Source: Lytechinus pictus
Taxonomy: Eukaryota
Direction of reading: 5' to 3'
DNA: 64,000 nt
NCBI RefSeq assembly: GCF_037042905.1
Contig: NC_087250.1
Span: 6,698,001 to 6,762,000 of the forward strand
Shown here: positions 2,211 to 57,586 of the stretch, piece after piece
Numbering within the stretch: the stretch's first letter is position 1
Layout: each line of letters opens with the position of its first letter
The notes under the pieces: model-generated
What the model saw: the letters and a program-made list of their open reading frames with translations, nothing else
Told to the model about the DNA's origin: nothing
Databases searched by the model: none
Made by a program: the position numbers and the translations under genes

Positions 2211-2658
2211 ATTCGGCGCCTCATAGTCTAGTGTGTTTGTGTGACTATTTATAGAAATCCCAACACCACTTGAATTTACTGTATAGCGTAGCATGCCTGC
2301 ATGTTCGAACCAGGGATACGCATATCCCTGCTCCGCGTAGGCCTATCGTAATTGCTCTCTACTCTCTGTGTTTGGCAATACTCAAACTGATGAAGGGGGG
2401 GGGGGGAGGGGGTGGGTGCGGTGCGGTGTGTGAGTTCCTTGGTTTGCTTCCGAGTATTATTCTTCAAAATTACACATGGTAACGGTCATTTCTAGTATCG
2501 CAACTGTAAATTTATTTAAAACAAACAACACTTTTTTATAATGATGAATTTGTTTTCATGATTATGTTTGCATGTTTTATGGGTTTGTAGCTTATAATAA
2601 GACCGAAATGATTGTTTAAAGTTTAATCCCCCAAGTATTTTTGCAACAATCAAAGTAC

Positions 2659-2836
2659 CAGGGGCCGCGGAACGTTTTTCAAAGTGGGGGGGGGGGTGGC
2701 TAGCTGAGACAACTTGTGGGGGGCTGACCATCATCGGCTAAAAATCACAATCATATGGTTATTTTTACGTATCAGTGTACACGGTTTTGGAAAAAGGGGG
2801 GCTGATGATGACGCCACCTCGGTTCCGCGGCCCCTG
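2659..2836. mobile_element. hAT-like MITE with poly-G tract
   Basis: TIR CAGGGGCCGCGGAAC / GTTCCGCGGCCCCTG. A related copy lies at 57961-58061. Confidence 0.7.
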
Positions 2837-3164
2837 CATGTTAGAACGTAGTGTAACATTTGCAATTGAATTTGTTTCAACAACATCACGATACTCAACG
2901 GGACTGTTATAGTTTGTTGTATGCCTAGGCTTTTTATTGTCCAAACAGTTGTAATGTTTGTAATTATGACTTTGTTTTATGCTTATAATTTTTTTTTCGC
3001 TTACACTAAGACAAGACGCGGTAGTTTTAATTGATCCATTTCAAGTTGATAAATATTCATGGGCTTACAGGACAAATACTTATAAGTCTACAATAGTATT
3101 CATTATAGCCTTGAATTTTGTACCCCTATTCCGGTTTGTGTGTGATTTATTATATTGTGGTGGG

Positions 3165-3227
3165 CAGTGGCGTACCTAGGATTTTCCACAGGGGGGGGGG
3201 CAAAACCGTCCGCCAAAAAATTTGACA

Positions 3228-3261
<34 letters not shown>

Positions 3262-3388
3262 TCTTCAATCACAAATAAATCTTTCAAGCTCGTCAGGGGG
3301 GGGGGCAGGGATACGTCCTTTGCATGGGTTGTGGCTCGTCAGGGGGGGCAGACTGCCCCATCCCCCCCCCCCCGTAGGTACGCTAGTG
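3165..3388. mobile_element. hAT-like MITE
   Basis: CAGTGGCGTACCTA / TAGGTACGCTAGTG termini. 8-bp TSD GTGGTGGG/GTGGTAGG (7/8). Confidence 0.7.
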
Positions 3389-3625
3389 GTGGTAGGAGCT
3401 TACGAATCACTGGCGGATCCAGGGGTCACATCCTGCCCGTGCCCATGCACCCCTATAAGAACAACACCATCAAAATTGTAAATGTAATTATATCCCAAGT
3501 GTGCAAATTACCTATGCAGGGGGCCCGGTATGGAGCGGCATTGCGCCCCCGTCATGGATCATGTAGCCACTGATTTTTTTTTTCTGAATTCATTGCACAA
3601 CTTCCCCTAAGCCATGCACCGTTCA

Positions 3626-4240
3626 AGAACAAGTCCACCCAAACAAAAAGCTGATTGAAAAGAAAGAGAAAAATCAAACAAGCATATAACACTTAAAATT
3701 TCATCAAAATCTGAGCTAAAATAAGAATATTATGACATTTTAAAGTTTCGCTATATTTCACAAAACAGTTATATGCACATCTTAGTTGGCATGCAAATGG
3801 GATGACTTATGACATAACCCAATCACTATTTATTTGTACTTTATTATCATGAAATATGAAATATTCTCATTTCCCCCCCCCCCCCCCCCCATTGTCATGT
3901 GAAATAAAGTTGCATTCCTACCCGAAGATGTATAATTAAATTGTTTTAACATTATCTGGTTCAGACAATATAGGGTCCTAATTTTCAAATCTGTAAAAGC
4001 TGAAATGATATATAATTCAAGCAATAAAAACAAAACAAAAATAATTAGTGAGTGACATCATTGACTCTTATTTTGCATATCATAGTATTGAGCATATGAC
4101 TGTTTTTTTTTAAATCAGCGAAACTTTAAAATGTCATAACTTTCTTATTTTACATCCGATTTTGAGGAAGTTTTCAGCGTTATTTTTGTTTGTTTGATTT
4201 TCTCTATCAAACAACTTTTTTTCTGGGGTGGACTTGACCT
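3626..4240. mobile_element. Kolobok-type MITE
   Basis: AG...CT termini (AGAACAAGTCCACCC / GGGTGGACTTGACCT), flanked on both sides by TTCA (TTAA variant). Long imperfect internal inverted symmetry. Confidence 0.7.
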
Positions 4241-4339
4241 TTCAGGTAGGCATAATCTTGCCCAGCGCACTTGACATGATTTACAGGCCTAGCCTATATT
4301 ATATCGATTTCACAACCGAAGAGTTGTCGAACATATCTA

Positions 4340-23842: not shown

Positions 23843-25661
23843 TAGTCCAGGATAGGCCCATAGCAAGTGGATTCATTTTTTTTTCATATATACAATATTT
23901 TATGATGGTTTCTTGTCAATTTGAGGGTGCTGATTACGAATCTGAATGATGCCACTCATGTAACCTTTGTCATTTTCCGCACATAGGCTTATGGCCGCCA
24001 AAATATGCAAATTACCCATGACAATCATACAATTGCCAGCACACTGGCTATATATAAAATCAATGTAATGTGTTGCACGAGTAAAATACTTGTTGATAAG
24101 TGACTTTTGTCGAAAATTATATTTTCTTGATATTCAAAATCGACGCCAATACTCTACATTGTACAATTATAATAATAATAATAATAATATATGTGATTTG
24201 TAATGCGCCAAATCCACTCGGCAGAGTGCCCAAGGCGCAGTGAAAGAAGAAAGAAAGAACGAAAGAGAACAGGTACAAATTATAATAGTAATAGATTCAG
24301 GAACAATTAAGAGTAAGAGGCATTGAATAGACGAGTCTTAAGGTAACGTTTAAATGTATCAATGGACGTGCATTCACGGATTGTCAGGGGAAGATCATTC
24401 CATAGAACAGGGCCAGCGTGAGCAAAAGCCCGAACCCCCCATGTCTTAACTGATTTAGGAATAACTAGGGAACCAGAGTTTGATTAACGTAGGGACCTGA
24501 CTGGAGTGTATTTGTATTTGCAAAATTCCCGCAAAACGACTGAGTAGTATTATGTACAGTGTTAATGGGACAAAAAAATTACAAGAGTTATCACTAAAAT
24601 GCATACTATTAGGTTAAATGAGTGGAATACTGACTAAAACATAATTTTTAACAAAATATACTGTTTAATATGTACATGTATGTACGTGATAAATGCTGTA
24701 TTTTGAAATTAAAAATGGCCGCCACAGGTCCTATGTGTATTATGTACAATGCGGATGGAGAAACTATTCTTTACAAGATTAAACCATAAAATATGTGTAA
24801 TTGTGATCTATGAGTAAAATGTTGTCTGAAAACACGTTTATAGCGAACATGTCATATCTTTTGTCATGCATGATATAAATGCTGAATTGTGAAATTCAAA
24901 ATGGCCCCTATAGGCGCTAAAAGAATTATCTACGATGTAAATAGGGACAGATAGTTTTGTAAAAAAAATTGATTTGCTTGTCTATGAAATCCATATAATT
25001 TTGTTAGATGAATAAAGTGTTGTTTGAAAACATGATTTGTATGAAACATAGCGTTTCCTTTGCCATATGTGATGGATACTGTATTTTGACATTCAAACTA
25101 GCCACTACAACCCCTAACTGAATTATGTAACATGCTGTAGGGAAACTAATTTTCACAAGAATGGGCGGAGCCATAAAATACATATAACTGTGATGTATAA
25201 GCAAAATATTACACGATCTATAACTAAATACATCGCATATGGGCAAAGGGCGACCATTCTAAAATTAGACAAATAACTTTTATCACCTAAATGATATATT
25301 TCATTAGAAATCATGTTTTCAGACAATATTTTACTCATACACCACCATTTACTCAAAAAAAGGATAATTCTATTGGAATTATTTGTCCCCATTCAATACC
25401 GTTACGGCCTTTTGCGGCCATTTTGACTTTCAAAATACAGTACTTATCACCAACCTAGCAGAAGAAGGGCAATCTTGTGATTTTCATGGGTAATTTGCAT
25501 ATTTTGGCGGCCATATTGGATTTTGACAATTTGCGGAAAATGCTCTAGGTTACATGAGTGACATCATTCAGATTCCTAATCAGCATCCTCAAATTGATAA
25601 GAAACCATAACAAAATATTATATATATGAAAAAAAGGGTTATGCCTCTTTTACATGGACTA
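23843..25661. mobile_element. Academ-like non-autonomous element
   Basis: TAGTCCA...TGGACTA termini. Long imperfect subterminal inverted repeats (gagggtgctgatt..gaatctgaatgatgccactc). Same family as 43606-48047. TSD not preserved. Confidence 0.65.
24168..24515 (-). mobile_element. L2-clade LINE 3' end nested in the Academ-like element
   Basis: Minus strand KYTPVRSLR*SNSGSLVIPKSVKTWGVRAFAHAGPVLWNDLPLTIRECTSIDTFKRYLKTRLF, followed by a 3' UTR with GCGCCTTG...GCGCATTACAAAT and an (ATT)n tail. Confidence 0.85.
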
Positions 25662-28219: not shown

Positions 28220-28919
28220 TAATAACTTTCTTAATATTTAACGGATTTCCTCCAAACCTTCACCGATATTTTATTTTATTATTTTGAGGGATATTTTTTA
28301 GAGAAGTAGAGGTAGAGAATGACATAGTCTACACCCTCGCTATGTGGTTTTCACTAAATTTATCATTGTATAAAATGTGTTATATTTTATTTCATGTGAA
28401 TAAGTTATGCTAACATTATATTCATGAAGGGCACACTTTTGCTCTAATTCATTAAATAAAGATCCGAGAAGGCAATTTCTTATGAAAATATTCTGTATCG
28501 TATAGCATTCGTAACATATGTAAACTGAAAACAAATCGGTTACCAAATGGAATTGTATATTTTTTTTCTTATTAGGATATTATTTAATTCTTAGTTTTTG
28601 TTCTTTTCATATAAATTGTTGTCCAACAAATATCGTCCGTTACTTTATTTTGGCCATAATTCAATAGCATCGAATTTAAAAGAATGCTCTCAATTATTTG
28701 TTTGTTTACAGTTTTGTCCAGAGATTCAATCTTCGGTATGATTGTTGTTTGCTAATCTTAGCTATATCAGTATATGTATTACTCAATTTGTTAATACCTT
28801 TAGGATTTTCTCCTTTAAGTTGTGAATAATAATTCCGTTTAAAAAACATTTCGTTATTCAGTTGATTTTATATAATTTTATTATCATATACACACGTTTG
28901 TTTTTACTTTCTTATTCAG

Positions 28920-29440
28920 ATTAGTAATTATGAGCCTGGTAATGACATGAATGATGATATGACTACCAGGTTGTGGAACTGTCTGAGATCCTTCAACCTA
29001 CTGACCCATCTAAACATCTCAGACTCATCTCTCAGTTTCCCTCAATCACCCCCTCAACTACTATCCGTCACAGCGCTATCAGCTGAGAGATTGACGTCAC
29101 AATGCTATGAAGGACTGATCTCATCGCTCCCTGGTTTGGTAAAGATCGATATCACCACTGATAATGCAGATAGAGACATATCCCAGATCACTGCTGGTCT
29201 CAGGCGAACAGGAGGACATAAACTCACACGCATTAACTTTCACGCACCGCCATCATTCCAACCAGAGAAGAGTCGTGTATCGAGAGACACCATGAGAGCA
29301 CTGGGTCTGCTGATCAGACAATATACCAAGAACCTGCAGTGGATTGGTTTGTCTGGAGTTATTGGTTTGAAGGAAGAAGATCTTGCTGAATTCCTTGAGT
29401 CGTCGACATCTTTGGCATCATTGGCTCACCTGCATCTAGA
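28920..29440 (+). CDS. Internal exon (LRR module 1) of an LRR protein, probably NLR-type immune receptor
   Basis: Pyrimidine tract + ttcag acceptor before 28920 and GA|gtgagt donor after 29440. 521 nt, phase 0-2. Translates ISNYEPGNDMNDDMTTRLWNCLRSFNLLTHLNISDSSLSF...SLPGLVKIDI...TKNLQWIGLSGV...SLAHLHL with LxxLxL periodicity. Clearly paralogous to the exons at 43041 and 54340. The NLR assignment is recognition of protein style, not a search result. Confidence 0.85.
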
Positions 29441-30292
29441 GTGAGTTTTTTTTTAACCATATGGGCTTATATCTTGCCGATTTCAACTGTCACTGTACGG
29501 AGTGTCAGAAAACAAAGTAGATGTATAAATGGATATTTGCTTCCGTAATAGTATGGATCCTACTAGGATCCATGATGACAGGTAGGCGACTCTGACTTAT
29601 ATATTTTTTTTAATACACACTAAATTGAATTTAGCAGCCAGTCGTATGTCCTCAAAATATATCGATACCTTTATATTTACCGACATCCCTCGACCCTATC
29701 TATATCGAGAGTGACTGTCACGTGGGAGTGACTTTTACCTACTGCTGCTTGACACCAGATAAGGAATACGTAAAACTGATAATTACAGTTATCAAAATAT
29801 TTAATCAAATCTCTTCAATCTCTGTTGTTTTCTTTTGATTGATTAACGATAATACATGAAAATATACATGGATATTGATAGCAGAATATACCTTAACAAT
29901 AATGGTTAAATCGATCCCCTATCATATCTTCTTGCCTGACATGCCCCACTCGGCCCTGGTGGTCGGTCCAGTTCCTGGCCTCCGCAGCTTGCGATGTCGC
30001 TCGATGCATCCACTGCTTTACTTCCACTCGGCCTCCACAGACAGTGTTGCCCCTTGATGAGTAGCCACCAGATAAGAGAGATGTGGCTTTGACAAATTAG
30101 TGGACGAGATTGAGCCCCCAAACTGAATTACTGAAATTACCCTGCTAATATACCCTACCGTTACTAGGACTAACTATAACATTTTATAAAGTAATTCAAA
30201 GTACCTACATCCCTCGACCCTATTCATATCGGGAGTGACAAAAGCAATTTGAAGTAAAGCAATTATAATAATAGTACTACCATTAGTAGCAT

Positions 30293-37289: not shown

Positions 37290-38288
37290 CCCTTTTTTAC
37301 TTTCTATATATGTTTTAGAAAGATTATATGTTTAAATTGATGTATATTTCTGCTATAATGAGATATGTTTAAGTGGACTTCAGGGAATGGTCGTACGCAG
37401 CAAGGGGGAAGGGGGGGCACATTCGCGATCTGCTGTTGTGAAAAAAATTGTTTTTTTCCTTAACATTTCATGAAAACTATGAAAAATGTGCAAATGTGAG
37501 ATGTGCACCAAATTTTCGAGTCTTGCCCCCCCCCCCCCCGGATATATTATCTGCGTGTGGTCATGCAAAATGGCATGACTGGAAATCCTACATTTTGAAA
37601 AGAGCGTTTGACAGGGTCAGACTTTACCCCTTTTTCAACATTTTCTTTTATGGCGCCGGTGAAGTGCAAAAATATGTGCGCCGCCCGGCAGTGCGCCCCC
37701 CCCCCTTTCGCCAAAAGCTGGATCCGCCTATGCACAATGCAATTAATAGCAAAATCGAATGACGAGAGCTGTACAGGGGAGGGTGGAATCCCTCTCGCTT
37801 AGCCTGGCGGAAATCATCGGACATCGATGGATAGCGCCACCTCCACACTAAACTCAACCAACCAACAACGCATGGAATCTTGTAAACATCGCTATCGAGT
37901 CTGCCGGGCATAATTCGAGCGTGAATCACGAGTAAATTTAAAGAAAAATATAAATATGTCATGAGTATTGAGTATCTAATCATGTTTTGTAAAAGCAAAC
38001 TGGATATCATATCCATGTATAAGTAATAAAAATGGAATATAACATTAATTTGAATGATTATTGTTGTATTGATCTAGTATCGGAACAGTATACTTGCGAA
38101 ACATAATGGTTATTCAATACATTTTTGCACAGTAGAATTTAGAATTGTCATTTTTGCTGCACTTAGGATTCAATTTAGATCTGGTTTCCAGTGTCGGTAA
38201 TTTTTTTATGTTATTAGAAATAGCCGTTAGAATACTTTCTTTACATATTTAGAAATTGGACTTTGAAACATAACTTATATAGATCATA

Positions 38289-41200
38289 AGTAGTATAAGA
38301 ACGTCTCCAGCGTCATGACGTAATGTTACGTAGCCCTCATGAATATTAATGAGGGTCATGAATATTAATAAGGGTCGTGAATACATAATGAGGGTGTCTT
38401 GGGCGTCATGACGTCATCCGAGCCCTAGCCTTAACCCTAGCCATAACCCTAACCGTAAGAGTACCAGCAACTGTAACCCTACACGAAACCCTAACCCTAC
38501 CCCAAACCCTGAACACGATGGAAGATGATGCTACTGACGTCAGTCAGTGTCATCATGGACGACATCGATAAGGACATCGTTGGATTGCAACAGGGAAGTG
38601 CAATGGAAGGGGAAGGAACACGACGTGACATGAAATGGGTGGGGGTATAATAATATAATAAAATACAAGGGGAGTTCTATGACATCATACTCGATATAGT
38701 CATCCATGACATCGTTGGATTGCGACAGGGGAGTGTAGAACGTGATGGGACATGAAATGGAGGGGTAAAACAACAGGTTAAAAAACAAGGAAACCTCTAT
38801 AAAGGGTTGAGGAAAACCGTCATTCGTCATTATTGCGACGAAAAAGGAGTAACACTCAAAAACTGGGACCGTCTACATACAACATGTGTAATACAACCGC
38901 AAAACGCCGACGATACCGAATGGTGGCAATAATTTCAGGAACAAGTGGAAAAGGCGGATTTGCTCATGGTCATCGAATATCTGGCCATTATCGAGATTTT
39001 CAAAGACATGAACAAATATCCAAAGACATGGGTGGAAGAATTGATCAAAGAAAATCCTCGGATGAAAGTACGGCAATCGTTGGAGTGCTTGGACCCTTAG
39101 AAGTTGGTCAAATTTTAACCCCACGTAGCGAGAGTGATGTGGATGAGACGAGAGCTGATGGACCCGTACCTCATCACAGAGTATGGGTTGTCTATAGCAT
39201 CATAACTTTATTATTTGTTTTATGAATATGAATTATGAAATATGTAAATTCATAACGTGTATGAAACATGGACATGACATCATAATTATACATAAATTAT
39301 GAATAAATTATGATTAAAGCTATCGTGACATCATACCGATGATGTAGTGGTCCCAAACTTTGCTTGGTTTAGAGCCCTTGGTTGTTTGCTCTCGGTATTA
39401 AGCAGCTATAGGCTTGGATTTGATTCTCAATGTTTACCTCGTTGAGTTTCATGCGAATGCATATATGGGCAGTATCGTCGTAGCCATCAATGATCGATTT
39501 TCTGTATGATAGGACTAGTATGGCGAAAAACAATGGGGGAAGTTGTAAAGAGCGGAGGAAAATGACAATTTATTCGTCAGTTTCGTCATTTGGTTATTTT
39601 CATAATTTTGATAATTTTGTCATTTCGTCATTATTTGTTGTTCTGTCATTTGTCAATCGGTCAATTATTCATTTTGTCGTGCTGCCATTTCGTCATTCCA
39701 TCCTTTAGTGGGAATAGGGTGGGAAAGGGGAGGATCGATCGGCAAGGGAGGAGCCCTGAGGGACAAGTATCCGTCTTTTCATCATTGTACAATTCGTCAT
39801 TTTCATGCCATCGTTTTTTAATTTTTTCTCTCGTTTTGTCATTTTGATAATTTGGCCATTCGGTAATTATTCTACCATTTGTCGATCGGTCAATAATTTA
39901 TTTCTCGTTCAGCCATTCGGTTATTTCGCCGATTTATCATTTTCTTCCTTACGTTATACGCTGTTGTTCTGCTTTTTAACAGTTTCCTAAAGAAATTGTT
40001 CATTGAAAATCAAGAAACATATGCATCATTTTTTTTTTCTACTTTGTTTAATCTGTCTATCATCATTGTACGATTCGTCATTTTAATGTCATCCTGTTTG
40101 TGTTATATCCATGCCATCGTTTTAATGTTTTCTCTCGTTTTGTCATTTTGATAATTGTCGATCAGTCAAATGTTCATTTTCTCCTTCTGTCATTCGGTCA
40201 TTTCGTCGTTTTGTCATTTTCTTCCTTACGTTACGTCGTTGTTTTGTTACTAACAGTTTCCAAAAGAAATGGTTTCATTGAAAATCAATAATAATAATTA
40301 ATAAAGATTTCGGGGGTATAAGAACTTAGGCAGCAATATTGTTTTGGTTGAATCGTTGACATGGGTGTCGATCGTGGGGTGGGGGATATATTTCTCCCAA
40401 TAATATCACATTATAATAATTGTTATGAATCATCTGACAAGTATAGGAGGGAGTAGAAGATGAACAATCATTGTGTATACTTACGATGGCCATCTAGTTT
40501 GTTCTCTTATATCTTTCTTGATTTTCAATGAAACTATTTCTTTTGGAAACTGTTAGTAACAAAACAACGACGTAACGTAAGGAAGAAAATGACAAAACGA
40601 CGAAATGACCGAATGACAGAAGGAGAAAATGAACAATTGACTGATCGACAATTATCAAAATTACGAAACGAGAGAAAAAATAAAAACGATGGCATGGAAA
40701 TAACACAAACATGCAGGATGACATTAAAATGACGAAATGTACAGTGATGATAGACAGATTAAACAAAGTAGAAATTTAAAAAAAATTATGCATATGTTTC
40801 TTGATTTTCAACGAACAATTTCTTTAGGAAACTGTTAAAAAGCGGAACAACAGCGTATAACGTAAGGAAGAAAATGATGAATCGGCGAAATAACCGAATG
40901 GCTGAACGAGAAATAAATTATTGACCGATCGACAAATGGTAGAATAATTACCGAATGGCCGAATTATCAAAATGACAAAACGAGAGAAAAAATTAAAAAA
41001 CGATGGCATGAAAATGACGAATTGTACAATGATGAAAAGACGGATACTTGTCCCTCAGGGCTCCTCCCTTGCCGATCGATCCTCCCCTTTCCCACCCTAT
41101 TCCCACTAAAGGATGGAATGACGAAATGGCACCACGAGAAAATGAATAATTGACCGATTGACAAATGACAGAACAACAAGTAATGACGAAATGACAAAAT

Positions 41201-42549
41201 TATCAAAATTATGAAAATAACCAAATGACGAAACTGACGAATAAATTGTCATTTTCCTCCGCTCTTTACAGCTTCCCCCATTGTTTTTCGACATACTAGT
41301 CCTATCATACAGAAAATCGATCATTGATGGCTACGACGATACTGCCCATATATGCATTCGCATGAAACTCAACGAGGTAAACATTGAGAATAAAATCCAA
41401 GCCTATAGCTGCTTAATACCGAGAGCAAACAACCAAGGGCTCTAAACCAAGCAAAGTTTGGGACCACTACATCATCGGTATGACGTCACGATAGCTTTAA
41501 TCATAATTTATTCATAATTTATGTATAATTATGATGTCATGTCCATGTTTCATACACGTTATGAATTTACATATTTCATAATTCATATTCATAAAACAAA
41601 TAATAAAGTTATGATGCTATAGACAACCCATACTCTGTGATGAGGTACGGGTCCATCAGCTCTCGTCTCATCCACATCACTCTCGCTACGTGGGGTTAAA
41701 ATTTGACCAACTTCTAAGGGTCCAAGCACTCCAACGATTGCCGTACTTTCATCCGAGGATTTTCTTTGATCAATTCTTCCACCCATGTCTTTGGATATTT
41801 GTTCATGTCTTTGAAAATCTCGATAATGGCCAGATATTCGATGACCATGAGCAAGTCCGCCTTTTCCACTTGTTCCTGAAATTCTTGCCACCATTCGGTA
41901 TCGTCGGCGTTTTGCAGTTGTATTACACATGTTGTATGTAGACGGTCCCAGTTTTTGAGTGTTACTCCTTTTTCGTCGCAATAATGACGAATGACGGTTT
42001 TCCTCCACCCTTTATAGAGGTTTCCTTGTTTTTCAACATGTTGTTTTACCCCTCCATTTCATGTCCCATCACGTTCTACACTCCCCTTTCGCAATCCAAC
42101 GACCTCATGGATGACTATATCGAGTATGATGTCATAGAACTCCCCTTGTATTTTATTATATTATTATACCCCCACCCATTTCATGTCACGTCGTGTTCCT
42201 TCCCCTTCCATTGCACTTCCCTGTTGCAATCCAACGATGTCCTTATCGATGTCGTCCATGATGACACTGACTGACGTCAGTAGCATCATCTTCCATCGTG
42301 TTCAGGGTTTGGGGTAGGGTTAGGGTTGCTGGTACATTCAGGGTTAGGGTTTCGTGTAGGGTTACAGTTGCTGGTACTCTTACGGTTAGGGTTATGGCTA
42401 GGGTTAAGGCTAGGGCTCGGATGACGTCATGACGCCCAAGACACCCTCATTATGTATTCACGACCCTCATTAATATTCATGACCCTCATTAATATTCATG
42501 AGGGCTACGTAACATTACGTCATGACGCTGGAGACGTTCTTATACTACT
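38289..42549. mobile_element. Non-autonomous Polinton/Maverick-type foldback element
   Basis: Termini AGTAGTATAAGAACG...CGTTCTTATACTACT. 6-bp TSD ATCATA (38283-38288, 42550-42555). Near-identical inverted arms 38289-40288 and 40518-42549 around a 229-bp spacer. The paralogous intron copy near 53736 has a single ATCATA (empty site). Confidence 0.85.
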
Positions 42550-43040
42550 ATCATATCCTGAGATTTTCAGCCTATTCTATGATTGAGAAGCTCGTTTAAA
42601 TAGACACGATAAGATAACGCAGTAATGTTATGTTTCCGTTTAGATTTTTAAAACTTCAAACCACAACCGTTTTGGGTGCACATTCATTAATAAAATATGT
42701 CAATCAAACGGAATAATGAAATGTCATTTGGGGGATTTACCCAAACTAAATATAACCCTTCCATTTTAAAATCTTATTTATAAAAAACTACGTATATATC
42801 ACTTGGTATTTCTCTAAGATTTTATCATTAAAATGTTTTTTCAAGTGTCTGAATAATAAATAAAATAAATCATCGTGGAATTCTGGGATATTCTCGTTTT
42901 TCTGAAATACCTTTATAATTTATTTCACGAAATGCATGAAAGGTGTGAAGAAAAATCAGAACCCAATATTAGTTCATGCATCAATTATGTTTTTGACACG
43001 GTATTTTTATCCAGCTTTTCGAATTTGTATTTTCCTTCAG

Positions 43041-43342
43041 ATAAACAAATGTCATCTGTCTTCTGAGTTAACTGCTAGAACGTGGTCCTGTCTGAGATCC
43101 TTCACATCACTGAACCATCTCACCATCTCAGACTCATTGCTTAGTTTCTCACTATCACCTCCCGAGCTACCGTCCGTCACAGAGCTAATAGCCTGTAAAC
43201 GGACGTCACAATGCTATAAAGGGTTAATCTCATCACTACCTGGGTTGCGATATATTGAATTCCAAGATGCAGCTAGAGATGACTTTGTTGAATTTGTCGA
43301 GTCTTCAATACGTTTGACATCACTGCAACGACTTGTGATAAA
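43041..43342 (+). CDS. Internal exon (LRR module 2, internally shortened)
   Basis: tttccttcag|ATA AAC AAA TGT... and AA|gtgaga. 302 nt, phase 0-2. INKCHLSSELTARTWSCLRSFTSLNHLTISDSLLSF...SLPGLRYIEFQDAARDDFVEFVESSIRLTSLQRLVI. Paralog of the other two large exons. Confidence 0.82.
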
Positions 43343-43605
43343 GTGAGAGTTCATGCTTTTAGCTCCTTATTTGCCAAGGATGTCCATTCTTACAATAGCC
43401 GTATGCAAAATGCTTTTCCTGGTTAGGTGCTTAAAGCGCTACTATATCACCACGCTGGATATAAATTGTAGGCTTATTGTAATATTCTGAACTAATAAAA
43501 ACGTTTTAGGTAATCAGTAATGAGATAATAATACGTGGTAACTTACACTTAGTGCAGTTTCCAAAACAATACTTAATTCCGTTTTCCTGCCTAGCTAAGC
43601 TTACT

Positions 43606-45400
43606 TAGTCCAGGATAGAAGGTGTCTGATCTTTTTTTTTAGATATACAATGTTTTTTGATGGTTTCTTATCAATTCGAGGGTGCTGATTCCGAACCTGA
43701 ATGATGCCACTCGTGTAACCTTGAGCATTTTCGGCAAATTGGCAAAGTCAAATATGGCCTCCAAAATAATCAAATTACCCATGAAAATCATAAAATTGTC
43801 CGCACATTGGCTATAAAGTACATGTTATTGTGCTGCCGGAGTGAAATACTCTCTGAAAAAAGAAAGAATTTTGACAAAATATTCAGTTCCTTGGAAAGGA
43901 AGACCTTCGGGTTATAGTTATTTAGTTAATCTTTTTCCTTTCCCGGCATCCATGTGACTCTCCTATTCCTATTGTTTGTATATGTTGTTTATGTATTGAT
44001 TATGCCGAATAAAATAATAAAAAAATAATAATAATTTAGGCCCCTGTACAATATTAATAGGGAAAATTAATTTTTACGAAAGTGGGCACTGCAATGCAAG
44101 TAATAATGATCTATGAGTAAGGTAATGTTTGAAAACATGATTGCTAAAGATATGTATCATTTCTTATCTCATGTATGTGATAAATCATTGTACTTAAAAT
44201 ATAATTTTCAACGAAATATATTATTCGGGTTTCATATTTGTGTTAAATATTGTATTTTGACTTTCAAATTGGCCGCCAAAGACATTGAATGCATTATGTA
44301 CAATCGATCTGGGAAACCGATTTTCACAGTAGTCAGCACCTTAAAATGCATAATAATTGTGATCTTAGAGTAAAATATTGTATGAAAACATACTTCCTAA
44401 CACGATATATCATTCATTTTGCCAGGGAGGTGATAAATAATGTATTTTTTAAAGTCAAAATGGCCGCTACAGGCCCTGACGGTAGGCCTATGATGTACTA
44501 TGCGAATGGGCACAAATAATTTTAACAGAATTTGTCTTTGTTTGACTAAATGGTGTTGCATGTATGAGAAAAATATTGTCTGAAAATATGATTTCTAACG
44601 AAATAGATCATTTATATTTGAAATATGCTTTTTGTGGAAATTATCTTTCCCCATTCAAATTTTACATATTACGGTAAGGGACTATGGCGGCAATTTTCAA
44701 TTTCAAAATGCAGTATTCGTCACCTTTCGGACACAAGCTTTGATATGTTTCGTTAGAAATCACCATGTTTAGACAATACTTTACACTTACATGCAAATTC
44801 AGCATTTTTAAAGTAAAAATTCTGTCAAAATTATCTGTCCCCTGTAAGAATGTACATAATGCTTTGGGATCCTATGGTAGCCATTTTAAATTTCAAACTA
44901 AGGCATTTATTACCTTCTCGACAAATATAATTATGATGTATTTAGTTAAAAACCATGATCAAGACAATATTTTTCTTATACATTACATAGTTACGTGCAT
45001 ATTTGGTTCTCATTCTTGTGAAAATTTGTTTCCCTATACCCATATTACATAATTTAGTTAGGGCTTGTAGCGGCCATTTTGAAAGTAAAAATACAGTCAT
45101 TATCACCTATATGGGAGAGGAAATGTTATAAACAATGTATGATTAACTAAACAACTCTGTTCAATTTATTAAACTTTAATCGCCTTTTCTATTCATCTGA
45201 TCTATCTATATCGACCCAACATATCAACGATTTTTCTTAACTCTACGAGGTCCAATACATGTATTATTTTGAATTTGTATTTTCTTTACATATATATATA
45301 TATATATATGAAAACCATTTGTAAACCATTTTTCAGCCATTGGCTGCCAAATGTCCAAATATGTATTGCTTTTTGAATAAATAAACGATCAATATATATG

Positions 45401-45431
<31 letters not shown>

Positions 45432-48047
45432 TTCATAAAAAAAAATCATTTGTTTACAGTATTTTCCTCATACAACAGAATTATATGGATTTCTTAGTCA
45501 GGCAAATTCTAATTCTCACAAAAATATTTGTCCCCATTTACATTGTAGCTCTAAGGGCCCATAGAGGCCATTTTGAATTTCACAATACAGCAGTTATCTC
45601 ATGCATGACAAAAAAAATGGTGTCTCGCTAGAAAAAGCATGTTTTCAGACAAAATGTCACTCGTAGATTACAATTACATTCATTTTATTGTTCTTACTCT
45701 TGTGAAAATTAGTTTCTTCATTCCCTTTGTTCACAATACAGGTAGGGCATATAGCAGCCATTTTGAATGTCAAGATACAGCAATATTACCGAAATATATT
45801 GTATATATTGTCAATATTATATATTGTACACTGTGTAAGGCTTTATTATGGCAGCCACTTTGAATATCATAATACAGCATTTATCACATCATATAGTATA
45901 AAAATGACATAGTTTTATAACAATCAGGTTTTCAGACAGTAGTCCACTCGTAGGTCACAATCACATGCAATAATAGTGCTCTTGTTTTAAAATTATTTTC
46001 CCCATTCTTATTCTACATAATAGCGTATACAGGGGCCTATGTCGGCCATTTTGCATATCAGTAGGAGTGGGCTATACATGGGTCAAAAATACTTTTTTTG
46101 TAATTTCAATATGACAACAGTTTTTTTTTATTCCTTGTAATGTATCTCTACATGAAATGACAATATTTTTTGTCTCGGGTCCGAGAAAAAAGAGTGCCGG
46201 GCCAAAATCCAAAATGGCCGCCAAAACCCCCCAAAATCACAGTTTTGGCCACAACTTTTTTATTTGGTGGTCAATTTCTCTGGTTTTGGTGTCTATTAAT
46301 ATGTCTTGGGGGGGAGGCAATTTGTTTTTCCTATAATTAGTACTTTTAAACTATTATTTGTAGAGTTAAAAGGTAATTATACCTAAATTTTCCAATTTTC
46401 AAAGCCTTTTTTCAGCCAAAAAGTAGGTTTTATCATCCTGGGGTTCTGGGATATTAGATGGTACGAGGTCAACAATAGCAAGCAGCTTTATATAGCTATA
46501 TTGCTTTTATTCCTCCACTTTGGGTTTACGGATATTTGTGAAATATATCTTATTAGATAAAAAATGTCAATTATCCATTGGGGCTATACAGTATACATAT
46601 GTAAAATGTACTGTACATACATACTGCACTGCATAAATGCATTGGCCACAATGACAGATAACAAGGCTTGTATAAACTAGTGTCATAGAAATGAGCTCTC
46701 AGGTTTAGAATTAGATGCCTCAGAAATTGAAAATATATGTTTTGTCTCAGAAATTTAGGACATGTTTTGTCAAATATGCTAATTCAGGGGGCGGAGAGGG
46801 GTAATTTACACTGTAGCTATTCTGGGCCCCGTTGCATAAAAATGTACCATTATGTTAACTTAACTTAATGGTAACTTGCATGCAATCCTTTATTCTGATT
46901 GGCTGTTGATCAGCGTTACCATGATACTAGTAGTTACCCGACCTTATAAACATAGGCCAGTTAGACACCAGAACCAGGTTAAAAAAAACCTCCAAATTAA
47001 GAAGATATGGCTCACATGTATGTGATATTTACATGTAAGTGTAATTTACGTTGCTGGTTTCACCATGTACATCAGCTGACAGGGAATCAAATTCACAATC
47101 TAATTCTAAACCTTTGAAGCTTATTTCTATGACACTACAGTTTATATACAGGCCTTGTCATATGCCATGGTGGTCAATGCATGGATATATGCAGTGTAGT
47201 ATGTACAGTGCATTGCAAACCGTATAGCCCTTATGGATAAATGACTTTTTCTTATATTTGATAAGATATATTTCACAAATATCTGTAAAACCTTAAGTGG
47301 AGGAATAAAAGCAATATAGCTACATGAAGCTACTTGCTATTGTTGACCTCGTACCATCTAATATCCCAGAACCCCAGGATGATAAAACCCACTTTTGGGC
47401 TGAAAAAAGGCTACAAAAATGGGAAAATTTAGGTATAATTACCTTTTAACTCTACAAATAATGGTTTAAAAGTACTAATTAAAGGAAAAACAAATTGCCT
47501 GCCCCCAAAAACATATGAATAGACACCAAAACCAGAGAAAATGACAACCAAATAAAAAAGTTTTGGCCAAAACTGTGATTTTGGGGGGTTTTGGCGGCCA
47601 TTTTGGATTTTGGCCCGGCACACTTTTTTCTCGGACCCGAGACAAAAAATATTGTCATTTCATGTTGAGATAAGGTAAAAGGAACACAAAAAAACTGTTC
47701 CCACAGTAAAACCAAAAATCACCCATTTATAGCCCACTCCTAATATCAGTTAAATAATTTTTTTTTTTCAAATATCGTTTTTCCAACGAGTATTTCACTT
47801 CCGCACAACAACTACATGCATTTTATAGTTAATTTGTGGGCAATTTTACGATTTTCATGGGTAATTTGCATATTTTGGCGGCAATATTTGATTTAGCCAA
47901 TTTTCGGAAAATGCTCAAGGTTACCAAAGTGGCATCATTAAGATTCGGAATCAGCACCCTCGAATTGAAAAGAAACCATAAAAAAACATTGTATATCTAA
48001 CAAAAAACAAAGTTCGACCCCTTCTCTATGTGGCCTATCCTGGACTA
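43606..48047. mobile_element. Academ-like non-autonomous element
   Basis: TAGTCCAGGATAG / CTATCCTGGACTA termini. 3-bp TSD ACT. Subterminal inverted repeats. Contains nested element 46062-47742. Confidence 0.8.
46062..47742. mobile_element. Nested long-TIR DNA element (~650-bp imperfect arms)
   Basis: TAGGAGTGGGCTATA / TATAGCCCACTCCTA termini. 7-bp TSD ATATCAG. Arms ~46062-46720 and ~47095-47742. Confidence 0.8.
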
Positions 48048-52999: not shown

Positions 53000-54339
53000 A
53001 TGGCGATGATGAAACTGATGTTGAAGCACAATGAATAACAATAGTCATTGTAATGAGTTGAAATGTCCGTGAAGACGATGTTGATGATGATTAACAGTCA
53101 ATTTCAGCAATCCATGGGTTGAAGAGTGTTCATTAAAACTGGTTGATGATCTCTATGAGAACTGAGAATTCCTCTCTCAAAATTACTGCAAACAGTTCAT
53201 TGATGGCGGGCAAATAATTCCACAGAAGATAAATAATCCAGGTGGAAATAAAGTCTGCTCTGACATAAAGTCTGGCATGATCGAAACTTTAAGTTCTGAT
53301 CTGATATGATATTATCCGATCTGATATGATAATGTCCTTTAAGAAACTGCCAGCTTATATATACAAACTTCAACTATTCTGGAAGTTTATAGTATTCACT
53401 ATATATTAAGAACATTCTTCTTCTTTCTGGAGCAATCAAATTCTAAAACATTCTTGAATGACCTCAGTGAAATTAACAATTGTAAACAAAATAGCTAATT
53501 CTATCGTCCATTTTCCACTGTGGACAGACTCTATTGTTTACATTCTCTATTGTTTGCAAATTCCAGAAATAACCAAGATTATTCAAAGATTACTCATGTC
53601 TAACAAAGCTGTACTATAGAGCCTTCTGGAACATTTTTAATCATTCCATGCTATGAATATCCTTAAAGGGGAAAATAACTAAATAAACTTTACATATTTA
53701 GTAATTGGATATTGGAAAGCAACTTATAATATCATTATACATCATATCCTATAATTTTCAGCCCATCCCATTCTTGAGAATGTATTTTATATAGACAAGA
53801 CAATAATAAACAGGGGTGCATCCGTTTGCATTACAGTTTGATGTAAAATGGGTAAATCTTTTTCAATAAAACAAATTTTCTTCTTGAAACTTCACACCAC
53901 GAGCATTTTGGGGCACATATATTGATAAGATATCGTAATCAATTGGAACAGTGACATTCGATTTTCTTTTTTGGGGGTAGCAAAACAAGAGATAGCCTTG
54001 GGGTTTTTTCAGTAATATATATATATATGGGTGTGTTCGTGTGTGAATATATTTCATATAATTCGGATTTTGTTCAGAATTTCTCCTCTGAAATAATGTT
54101 TCTTTAAGAGTATGAATATTCAATATGAAACATCACCTTTGATTTATTTATTATCGCGGTTTTTTTTTTTTGCGGGGGGGGGGGGTCGGCGGGGGTTGGC
54201 TGAAATACATTTATTTTTTTTTTTACGAAATGCATTAAAAGTGTGAAGAATAAATCTGATCCCAAAATTATTACATGAACCAAATAGGTTTTACACAACA
54301 TAATTGTTATCCATCTTTGCTATTAATATTTTCCTTCAG

Positions 54340-54839
54340 ATAACCGCATGTCGTCTGTCTTCCAAGATGACTTCTAGAATGTGGCCATGTCTTACATCTT
54401 TCAACTCACTGAAGCATCTTACCATCTCAGACTCATCTCTCAGTTTCTCTTCACCTCCTGAGCTACCATCGGTCACAAAACTATCAGCAAAGAGTGTGAC
54501 GTCACATTGCTATGAAGGTCTGATTTCATCGCTCCCTGGTTTGGAAGATATCGATATCATTATGGATGATGCAGAGGGAGACATGACCCATATCACCGCT
54601 GGTCTTCGTCAGACGGGAGGGCAGAATCTCAAACATATATATGTTTATGGTCCGTCGTCACTTTCACCAGAGAGGAGCCGTGTATCGATAGAGACAATGA
54701 GAGGACTGGGTCTGTCCATCAAAGAACATACACAGAACCTGCAGGAGCTCCATCTGCGATGTGTAGATTGTACAAACGAGGATGCCTTAGTTTACCTAAT
54801 GGAGTGCTGCAGACGTGTGAAGACGATGCAATACGTTAG
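54340..54839 (+). CDS. Internal exon (LRR module 3)
   Basis: ttccttcag|ATA ACC GCA TGT... and AG|gtaagt. 500 nt, phase 0-2. ITACRLSSKMTSRMWPCLTSFNSLKHLTISDSSLSF...TQNLQELHLRCVDCTNEDALVYLMECCRRVKTMQYV. Confidence 0.85.
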
Positions 54840-57586
54840 GTAAGTTCTTGCTTATGAAAACATATTTTGTTGATACAATTTAAATATCAATCCCATGCAG
54901 TGTTTCAATTTCTACAGTGTTCATATTACATGTAAACTATTTCCTGTAAATATTCGGATACATTTAGAGAACAAACGGTACCATTCTATTTTAAACAAGG
55001 ATAGTGTCATCGGGTAGGCTACTCTTAGAATTGCCATTTGAAATGTCAAGTCATCAAATATATTTCAGTGCATACAATTTGGTGTTAAATAGCTTTACCC
55101 TCTCATTAAATGTTCCTTTTATGTAATAGCACCAGCATGCAAATTTGAATTTTACTAGTTTAATCATAACTTTTTTATAAGCTCCAGTAGCCTGCTATCA
55201 ATAGTTGTTCATACCTAACTCGCAGTCAGTGTGAAATATTCGATTTGTACAATTACCACCGGAAGCAATTACCCCCCCCCCCCCCCCGAGGACAATAACC
55301 CCCTAGACAAAGGGAGTGCACAGAATCATACGTCGGCCGTACGTTTGAAGTAAGAAGTACTCAAGGCATTCTCGATTATATTGGAATCAAACGAACGCTC
55401 TAAGAAAGCTGTAAAAGTGAGCTCCATCCATTGGCAGCTTGCGCTATGCGCTCGCATTATTTGATTTGCCAAATTATACAACAAACTATTTAATACCCCC
55501 CCCCCCCCTTTATGACATTTTACCAAAAATTTCGTCTCACCATTTGTGCTCGCATTTTTGTTATAGATATATCAACTCACAAATCCTATTAAGGATTACA
55601 AAGTGCTTGAAATATCCAGTTTTCAGGCTTCAGTGTCAACACATTTCACTCACTCATTAGGCCTAATACATTAACTCTAACCCTGCCAGCCCGAATACCC
55701 CTCTACTGCCAGGGATATTCGAGGGAGTCCTAATTTGGCAGAAAATCGAGCAGCGACTGATTTAAAAACGGTCATAATTCTTTACCCGTACGTTGTATAA
55801 TGAAACCTTCTACACATGAAATGATGCATGGTTCATGGGCTTTATGATCGTGTTATTATCTTTCGTATTCGCGTTTGGAAAAATGGAGAAAAGATGTAAT
55901 ATTTTACATCGTTTTTTCAATAAGTAAAACCTAGAAAATTATGATTTCATGAACATTTCAAAGAGTAAATAACCTGAGGAATTGTAAAGATACCAAGAAA
56001 TTAAGAAGATAAAATGAACGTTCAATGTTTACCGTTTAAAATGACGTATCTATGAAATTGAACAAACAGAAATAACGAAAAATAATGCTCTTTTGAATGA
56101 AATACTATTTTGCTATTCAAGTTTTTTCCTCAGAAGTACGAGATAGTATAAATAGATGAGTGGCAAGAAGCCAAAAAGTGGTTTATTTCTTGACTTTAAT
56201 CCCCCCGGCTGGATCAAAGCAAAATCATACATCAAATTAAAGGAAATTTTCTGAATTTTTCGGAATTGGGCATTAAAAATGACGTAATATGTAGCATCAC
56301 CATGGAAGCCAGCCTTGATTAAGCCACGCCCATTTTAAATACTTATTGAATATTTATCGTGAATATTGATTTTTTACTCATAAATTTAAATTATCAGGAA
56401 TGTTTTCTTATTTTTAAAGGATAGTTCCACTATATATTGTAAGAAGAATTACTGAATAACAACTGAATTTATGAATATTTTCTCTGAAATTGTTGCCTAG
56501 CAACATAACTTTCCTTAGCAACCATTTAGCTCCTTAAGTAAACCACTTATTTTTCCATTTCAAACCTAACTTTTAACTTTTTAACTAGGTTAGATTAAAC
56601 CTAATAAGTTACACCAATGAAATTCTATAAAGTATTATTGAAAAATAATAAAAAGAACCGAAAACCCCCACTTTAATTATTGCAAACCTAAAATAAATTT
56701 GATAAGCTCTACTAAACATACCCCTTTCACATCGTACAAATCGCCATATTATTGTTCATTTTGACTACATTGACAGTCACATACTCTATACTATTTTGTG
56801 GTGAAAAAAGTGGATTGAGTTAATAATACCTGATCAATTAACATGCAGTATCTTGTCTTCAATAGAACAACAACAAAATTACCATTTCACCTTACCCATG
56901 GATACCAATTCATTGCCTAGCAACGACTATTTTCCATAGCAACGACTATGATAACACTCTCCTCCCTGGACAAATCTGTGTAAAAATAGTTCATTATGAG
57001 CAATAATACTCACAAAATTATCATATAGATGCCTACAACCTCATTTTCAATAATCATTCAACAAACTGACTATTTTTTAGCTTCCATGGAGACAAATGTG
57101 TTGCCTAGTAACAATATTCCCTAGCAACAGCTATGTTACCACTCGTCATCTCGGTCAAATGTGCTGAGGAAGTTGTGCCTTAGAGTAAACATATTGAGAA
57201 AATTAACATATGATAGTTTGTTAAACAGTATTCAGGAATTTACCATCATCTACTGACACAATTCCATTGCCTAGCAACACTATTTACCTTAGCAACGATG
57301 TATTTTTCCCTTAAACAATCTTGATGAAAATAATCCACTTTTAAGTGTACAGTACCATTTGTAAAGGGATGGTCTAGGCTGTAAATATTTCTATCTAAAT
57401 AGATAGAGTAAAATTCACAAAGCTAAATGCTGAAAATATCATCAAAATCGGATAACAAATAACAAAGTTATTGAATTTTAAAGTTTATCAATATAGTGTG
57501 AAAACCTTTATATCCACATTGTCATGAATATTCATTAGGTGGGCTGATGATGTCACATCCCCACTTTCCTTTTTCTTAGTTTATTA

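Follow-up and report, generated by a model that had tools for sequence, protein, structure and literature searches.

The 64,000-nucleotide stretch of Lytechinus pictus DNA analysed here (contig NC_087250.1, positions 6,698,001 to 6,762,000; the whole stretch is called the window) carries a palindromic insertion that is probably a non-autonomous, foldback-type derivative of a Polinton, or Maverick, transposon. This assignment rests on the sequence motif at the two ends of the element and on the 6-bp duplication of its target site. The element is 4261 bp long and lies at window positions 38289-42549. Two inverted arms of about 2 kb make up 95% of its length and enclose a short unique spacer, the middle domain. 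Each arm contains a decayed fragment of a small echinoderm gene. All coordinates given below are those of the window.

Insertion, ends and arms of the element

The left tip of the element, AGTAGT, starts at 38289 and the right tip, ACTACT, ends at 42549. The next bases outward are A and A; as these are not complementary, the inverted repeat ends exactly at the element tips. A copy of ATCATA abuts each tip, both copies being read directly from the sequence. A paralogous site in the following intron of the host gene is uninterrupted, and the two flanks meet there around one ATCATA. The exact 6-bp target-site duplication (TSD) together with the single ATCATA at the paralogous site identifies a true insertion that arrived as one unit. 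The region 38289-42549 is thus a genuine transposon insertion and not a chance palindrome. An initial annotation of this stretch had described the AGTAGT and ACTACT ends, the exact ATCATA duplication and integration as a unit, all of which are confirmed by the pair of ATCATA copies at the element and the single one at the empty site. It had also reported the empty paralogous site; this is present, with its one ATCATA, at 53741-53746 and not at about 53736.

The ends and the duplication match those of Polintons. According to PMC8097293, vertebrate Mavericks most commonly end in the motif 5′-(AGT)2//(ACT)2-3′, with (AG)3//(CT)3 as an alternative, and Mavericks were recognised by their end motif together with a perfect 6-bp duplication. 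The accessible part of PMC10045372 likewise gives 6 bp as the characteristic length of the Polinton duplication. The earlier description of AGT termini with a 6-bp TSD as typical of Polintons is in agreement with both sources. It has been proposed that the (AGT)2/(ACT)2 motif serves slide-back in protein-primed replication. In addition to the ends and the duplication, the element shares with Polintons the possession of terminal inverted repeats (TIRs). Kapitonov and Jurka reportedly found Polintons in sea urchin in 2006.

The coding content was searched with Pfam. None of the 70 stop-to-stop frames of at least 35 residues in the element gave a match at E≤0.01, and none of the Polinton core genes (polymerase, integrase, capsid, ATPase, protease) was found by this route. 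The element is therefore at most a non-autonomous derivative and not a Polinton proper, the definition of which requires a protein-primed PolB and a retrovirus-like integrase (PMC5499653, in the part available). The initial annotation had stated that no Polinton genes are present. This holds for the Pfam search, but the arms are not wholly non-coding, since each has its dead gene fragment.

When the element was compared with the whole window by BLASTN, its positions 1-2003 paired with 2227-4261 in an alignment of 2035 columns at 96.8%. This comparison gave 30 high-scoring segment pairs, every one of them inside the element, and there is thus no second copy in the window. Over the 2003 aligned columns of a global alignment the arms differ by 33 substitutions (16 transitions and 17 transversions; 1.65%), and there are three indels of 24, 4 and 4 bp. 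The arms of about 2.0 kb with scattered differences that had been described before are therefore seen here also. The spacer is 223 bp long at the BLAST boundary and 229 bp, the value given earlier, when the last unambiguous match, 40288/40518, is taken as the limit of the arms.

The substitutions are unevenly distributed. The terminal 210 bp of the arms contain one mismatch, at 38370/42468, and the first 421 bp one substitution; positions 672-1041 contain none. The longest mismatch-free run, of 370 bp, is located mid-arm and is as clean as the tip. Homogenisation of the ends, considered on the basis of the clean tips, was rejected, as the equally clean stretch at 672-1041 indicates that the patchiness does not favour the ends. 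Counted by arm quartile from the tip, the substitutions number 6, 4, 7 and 16 (chi-square p 0.016; Kolmogorov–Smirnov p 0.01). The excess sits at the low-complexity junction between the second and third tandem units of the arm, away from the loop.

Table 1. Coordinates of the element, its parts and neighbouring features in the window
Feature	Position	Strand	Remarks
Left arm, 2003 bp	38289-40291	+	starts AGTAGT; pairs with 40515-42549
Right arm, 2035 bp	40515-42549	-	ends ACTACT; pairs with left arm
Unique spacer (middle domain), 223 bp	40292-40514	none	no match elsewhere in window; no Pfam match
TSD, left copy ATCATA	38283-38288	none	read directly from sequence; single copy at paralogous empty site
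TSD, right copy ATCATA	42550-42555	none	read directly from sequence
Uninterrupted (empty) paralogous target site	53741-53746		next intron of same gene; both flanks abut around one ATCATA
Subterminal 19-bp tandem repeat, 3.1 copies (Tandem Repeats Finder)	38337-38395; mirrored at 42443-42501		flanked by CGTCATGACG / TGACGTCA-type palindromes
Telomere-like (CCCTAA)n patch, left, degenerate, in phase	38423-38510	+	about 135 bp inside tip
Telomere-like (CCCTAA)n patch, right, degenerate, in phase	42304-42415	mirror of left	24 bp (four hexamers) longer
Decayed, truncated gene fragment, left arm	38891-39184	+, end-inward	in-frame stops at 38930, 39098, 39116
Decayed gene fragment, right arm	41630-41953	-	two stops in common with left arm, third absent
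About three degenerate tandem units of ~230-300 bp, inner third of arm	39563-40291; mirrored at ~40515-41251		BLASTN
Next downstream host exon, NACHT/LRR-like gene	42969-43343	+	element end ~420-470 bp upstream
Copies of ~230-bp interspersed repeat	43632-43861; 47778-48007 (-); 23877-24090; 25467-25635 (-)		window self-comparison

Structure and gene content of the arms

Read inward from the tip, each arm consists of AGTAGT, a zone of palindromes and 19-bp repeats, a telomere-like patch, a TATAAAGG box, the gene fragment, a unique stretch and approximately three tandem units, which reach the inner edge of the arm. The arm stops where the third unit ceases to resemble the second. Palindromes resembling the cAMP response element (CRE)/ATF site (TGACGTCA / CGTCATGACG) are observed at 38309-38320, 38402-38419 and 38535-38545 and at the mirror sites of the other arm. 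They cluster within 260 bp of the tip of each arm, interleaved with the 19-bp repeats, and are candidates for sites where proteins bind the element end. The C-rich strand of the telomere-like patches reads inward, the orientation found at a chromosome end, and 11 of the 19 AACCCTA heptamers in the window fall within the two patches. The patches may derive from subtelomeric DNA that was captured, or may mark where the end of a linear ancestor was healed. An Rfam search of 37500-43500 gave no match.

We note that the spacer contains, at 40316-40325, the sequence GTATAAGAAC, which also forms bases 4-13 of the element tip. Near the other spacer edge, at about 40497-40507, lies TATAAGAGAAC (minus strand), an inverted match that is weaker. 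Among 500 shuffles, 3.8% gave matches that were equal or better (p ~0.04). With shuffle support this weak the matches may be due to chance, and we do not claim an inner element end within the spacer.

The decayed gene fragment in each arm was absent from the initial annotation. In the right arm, where one of the three in-frame stops is absent, an open frame of 114 residues results (41714-42058, minus strand). In the left arm the TATAAAGG box sits some 70-80 bp upstream of the fragment. Comparison by tblastn shows that the fragment in both arms covers the N-terminal ~60% of the small proteins (136-199 residues) of an unnamed echinoderm family, with gapless alignments at 44-56% identity and E values down to 3e-33. 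The fragment has no in-frame start and the C-terminal third is missing. Stops at 39098 and 39116 are present in both arms and the stop at 38930 in the left arm only. Judged by these lesions, the arm copies of the gene are dead. The two stops common to both arms further indicate that the gene had died before the arms were duplicated. Identity of about 50% over some 95 codons with no indel suggests a lineage that was under selection during most of its history and died recently.

The family is known only from unnamed small proteins and one gene model of Diadema antillarum. Searching 1.84 billion representatives with the 114-residue frame (HMMER) returned three proteins at E≤0.001, with a lowest E value of 8e-17. 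A profile search yielded 11 proteins of similar length, all of them unnamed, derived from ENA or Logan assemblies and devoid of Pfam domains. One match was found among longer proteins, an “uncharacterized protein” of Diadema antillarum; its last 159 residues correspond to the family and follow pentraxin and EGF domains. The family members (P0001-P0013) have intact open reading frames, share 46-82% identity with one another and are apparently all-helical. Intact frames at this level of identity mean that we are dealing with a real conserved echinoderm gene. Searches with the family gave no match in Pfam, a best match of E 0.16 in the PDB, no usable match in the ESM Atlas and nothing meaningful in PHROG, where two families were each matched by one of eight members at E~0.04. 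No relatives were found in IMG/VR or the JGI metagenomes, and the AlphaFold model has a mean pLDDT of 44. The arm gene does not belong to the genes that are widely conserved in Polintons; it may be cargo of the element lineage or a captured host paralogue.

Affiliation of the element and origin of the palindrome

A number of observations weigh against a Polinton affiliation. The element measures 4.3 kb, compared with 13-25 kb for Polintons, and has no pPolB, integrase, capsid, ATPase or protease gene. With a length of 2.0 kb, its arms are longer than Polinton TIRs, for which the range usually quoted is 100-1500 bp; vertebrate Maverick TIRs range from 46 to 1447 bp (PMC8097293, available text), and 2 kb is thus long, though not unheard of. 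Only a single copy is seen in the window, and no autonomous relative. The metagenome and viral contig collections searched do not contain the terminal 22-mer, and a comparison of the left arm plus spacer with a phage collection gave no match. As far as the available text of PMC8097293 goes, the (AGT)2//(ACT)2 motif is documented for vertebrates and not for echinoderms. The gene family in the arms shows no link to Polintons and has no relative in IMG/VR. Finally, the uneven distribution of substitutions along the arms is unexpected under one simple duplication followed by neutral decay.

The element could instead be a foldback of another or unknown cut-and-paste superfamily, comparable to sea-urchin TU or Drosophila FB, in which the Polinton signature is merely mimicked. 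Its architecture is that of the classical foldbacks (Drosophila FB, Galileo and Tetris, sea-urchin TU): long arms, with a unique domain on the outside and tandem repeats of ~220-300 bp further in, a small middle domain and no coding capacity, so that it belongs to the structural class as described in PMC4079207. Tetris, for instance, has TIRs of up to 1735 bp, tandem repeats of ~220 bp and a small middle domain (PMC4079207). Subterminal short repeats of the kind found here are typical of transposase-binding arrays, and no Polinton gene or homology was detected in Pfam or IMG/VR. The foldbacks differ from our element in having duplications of 8-10 bp and ends of the Mutator or P type. Most of them have been assigned to Mutator, and the Tetris duplications are of 8-10 bp (PMC4079207), whereas that of the element is exactly 6 bp; a Mutator-superfamily foldback was rejected for this reason. 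The other eukaryotic groups with 6-bp duplications in the accessible part of PMC10045372 are IS3EU and GingerRoot, which have termini TA..TA or TG..CA. The element ends in AG..CT and its repeat cannot be extended outward, and membership of either group was also rejected. An exact (AGT)2 at both tips is a specific match to Polintons. We therefore consider a foldback from outside the Polintons quite improbable. Foldback elements in sea urchin are said to have been described by Liebermann in 1983.

Taking the element as a Polinton derivative, we favour the inverted duplication of a one-ended fragment, because this explains a distance of ~223 bp between 2-kb arms without a further assumption. Both arms would be copies of one element end. 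A broken fragment that retained this end would have been duplicated inversely by hairpin or strand-switch synthesis, at a time when the gene fragment was already dead, and the ~1.65% divergence between the arms would have accrued since. The product would then have integrated as a unit, duplicating 6 bp of the target as Polinton-type integrases do. The integrase, and the polymerase if the molecule was replicated, would have been supplied in trans by an autonomous Polinton of the same genome. Provided that the Polinton assignment is correct, we place copy-back or hairpin duplication somewhat short of even, and near-symmetric deletion of a parent with TIRs of at least 2 kb lower, as a lesser but substantial possibility; other routes take up the remainder. 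The arm-to-arm differences themselves do not decide between duplication and deletion.

A more specific version of the duplication was proposed in the initial annotation, namely that a Polinton end was copied back on itself during protein-primed strand-displacement replication and that the resulting panhandle genome, resembling a defective interfering genome, was integrated. This snap-back model is a plausible sub-case of the explanation we favour, one that specifies the polymerase and the moment; on its own it is possible but somewhat unlikely. Polintons are thought to replicate like adenoviruses. The element is a near-complete palindrome, with arms of 2003 and 2035 bp around a spacer of 223 bp, and has an intact replication-type motif at both ends. 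A short loop between long arms is the look of copy-back or snap-back genomes (PMC13506859, in the portion available). Adenovirus, a protein-primed relative, produces inverted dimers and subgenomic DNA from the left end: in the accessible text of PMC4189039, adenovirus vectors with small genomes are packaged in the form of dimers, both direct and inverted, and packaged subgenomic DNA consists of left-end sequences only. Such molecules, like snap-back genomes, resemble the element in being symmetric, in deriving from one genome end and in having an origin at both tips; they differ in being free replicating molecules in culture, whereas the element is an integrated copy. Beyond the arm boundary the tandem-unit sequence continues for 8 of 9 bases on the right side and 5 of 9 on the left, which is a weak hint that the right arm and spacer may be the original and the left arm the copy. 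Set against this, a single copy of the element does not allow the work of a viral polymerase to be told apart from repair synthesis by the host or from deletion. The gene fragment in the arms was, moreover, already dead and truncated, so that a freshly active autonomous genome did not serve as the template. We know of no experimental demonstration of Polinton replication. Hairpin derivatives of the yeast linear plasmid pGKL1, reportedly described by Kikuchi in 1985, are a further analogue.

The contending route is an ordinary internal deletion, in which a parent Polinton with repeat-filled, dead-gene-bearing TIRs of at least 2 kb lost its middle. The initial annotation had taken Polinton TIRs to be normally well under 2 kb. 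The usual range of 100-1500 bp stands, but butterfly polintons have gene-containing inverted repeats of ~2 kb at their ends (preprint 10.1101/2025.02.07.637071, in the part available), which weakens the case for a special origin of 2-kb repeats and leaves an ordinary deletion derivative as a live rival. The butterfly elements are full-length, with core genes between the repeats, while the middle of our element is nearly empty, its gene is dead and the family of that gene is unnamed. For a deletion, both breakpoints would have to lie no more than ~223 bp from the inner edges of the TIRs in an element expected to measure 13-25 kb, a coincidence unless such deletions are favoured, and no such parent has been seen. 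Overall we regard this origin as unlikely. An assembly fold-back artefact is far less probable than any of these. Long palindromes are a known failure mode of assembly, and nothing direct points to one here. The 33 substitutions and three indels between the arms, the unique 223-bp spacer and the exact duplication matching the empty paralogous site all argue for a real structure, in line with the earlier judgement.

Host gene and consequences of the insertion

Three plus-strand exons at 28899-29441, 43017-43343 and 54334-54837 are collinear with a Lytechinus pictus protein, in which they correspond to residues 539-723, 849-957 and 972-1140. A search gave 56 matches to sea-urchin proteins annotated as NACHT-domain or “NLRC5-like”, the best from Lytechinus pictus at 76-84% identity. 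Since the exons are collinear with sea-urchin proteins of this NACHT/leucine-rich repeat (LRR)-like type, the element lies in an intron. The initial annotation had placed it in the intron of an LRR gene; collinear NACHT/NLRC5-like exons do flank the element, but Pfam LRR matches in the host exons are below threshold only. The exons (28866-29444, 42906-43346 and 54304-54843, plus strand) encode paralogous modules of ~180 residues and are separated by introns of 11-13 kb, which share decayed flanking homology. This arrangement looks like an exon-plus-intron tandem duplication within one gene.

Introns of the same gene also contain an interspersed repeat of ~230 bp, with at least four copies at 80-86% identity. 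It is probably an element similar to a miniature inverted-repeat transposable element or a short interspersed element. No transposon genes were found elsewhere in the window, as none of the 101 frames of at least 75 residues outside the element matches Pfam at E≤0.001.

Within a plus-strand pre-mRNA the arms would be predicted to pair into a hairpin of ~2 kb. The central 1499 nucleotides of the element alone fold into an almost continuous predicted stem of -1104 kcal/mol. The potential for a double-stranded RNA stem, raised in the initial annotation, thus follows from the sequence. An intronic hairpin of 2 kb in a gene of innate-immunity type is a candidate source of double-stranded RNA, of small RNAs and of adenosine-to-inosine editing. 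For the host it is also a fragile palindrome.

Non-autonomous offspring of Polintons have barely been described. Our search of the literature, to which Repbase was external, found no fitting element among non-autonomous, foldback or palindromic Polinton/Maverick derivatives; the phrase “non-autonomous polintons” refers there to the Tlr1 elements of Tetrahymena. If the present assignment is correct, a foldback has been built on Polinton ends, and foldback architecture arises in the Polinton superfamily too. Should a parent with short TIRs exist, the element would be a natural record of copy-back replication. A tentative reading, which we hold to be possible but somewhat unlikely, is that a defective Polinton genome of the snap-back kind is preserved here as a genomic fossil. 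A fragment with one end would have become a replicon with two, through hairpin or copy-back synthesis in the course of protein-primed replication, and would then have been integrated. The telomere-like patches could in that case record ends of the ancestral linear molecule that were healed by telomerase. Such a fossil would provide indirect natural evidence for extrachromosomal, adenovirus-like replication of Polintons, and would mean that Polintons spawn their own parasites of the defective-interfering kind.

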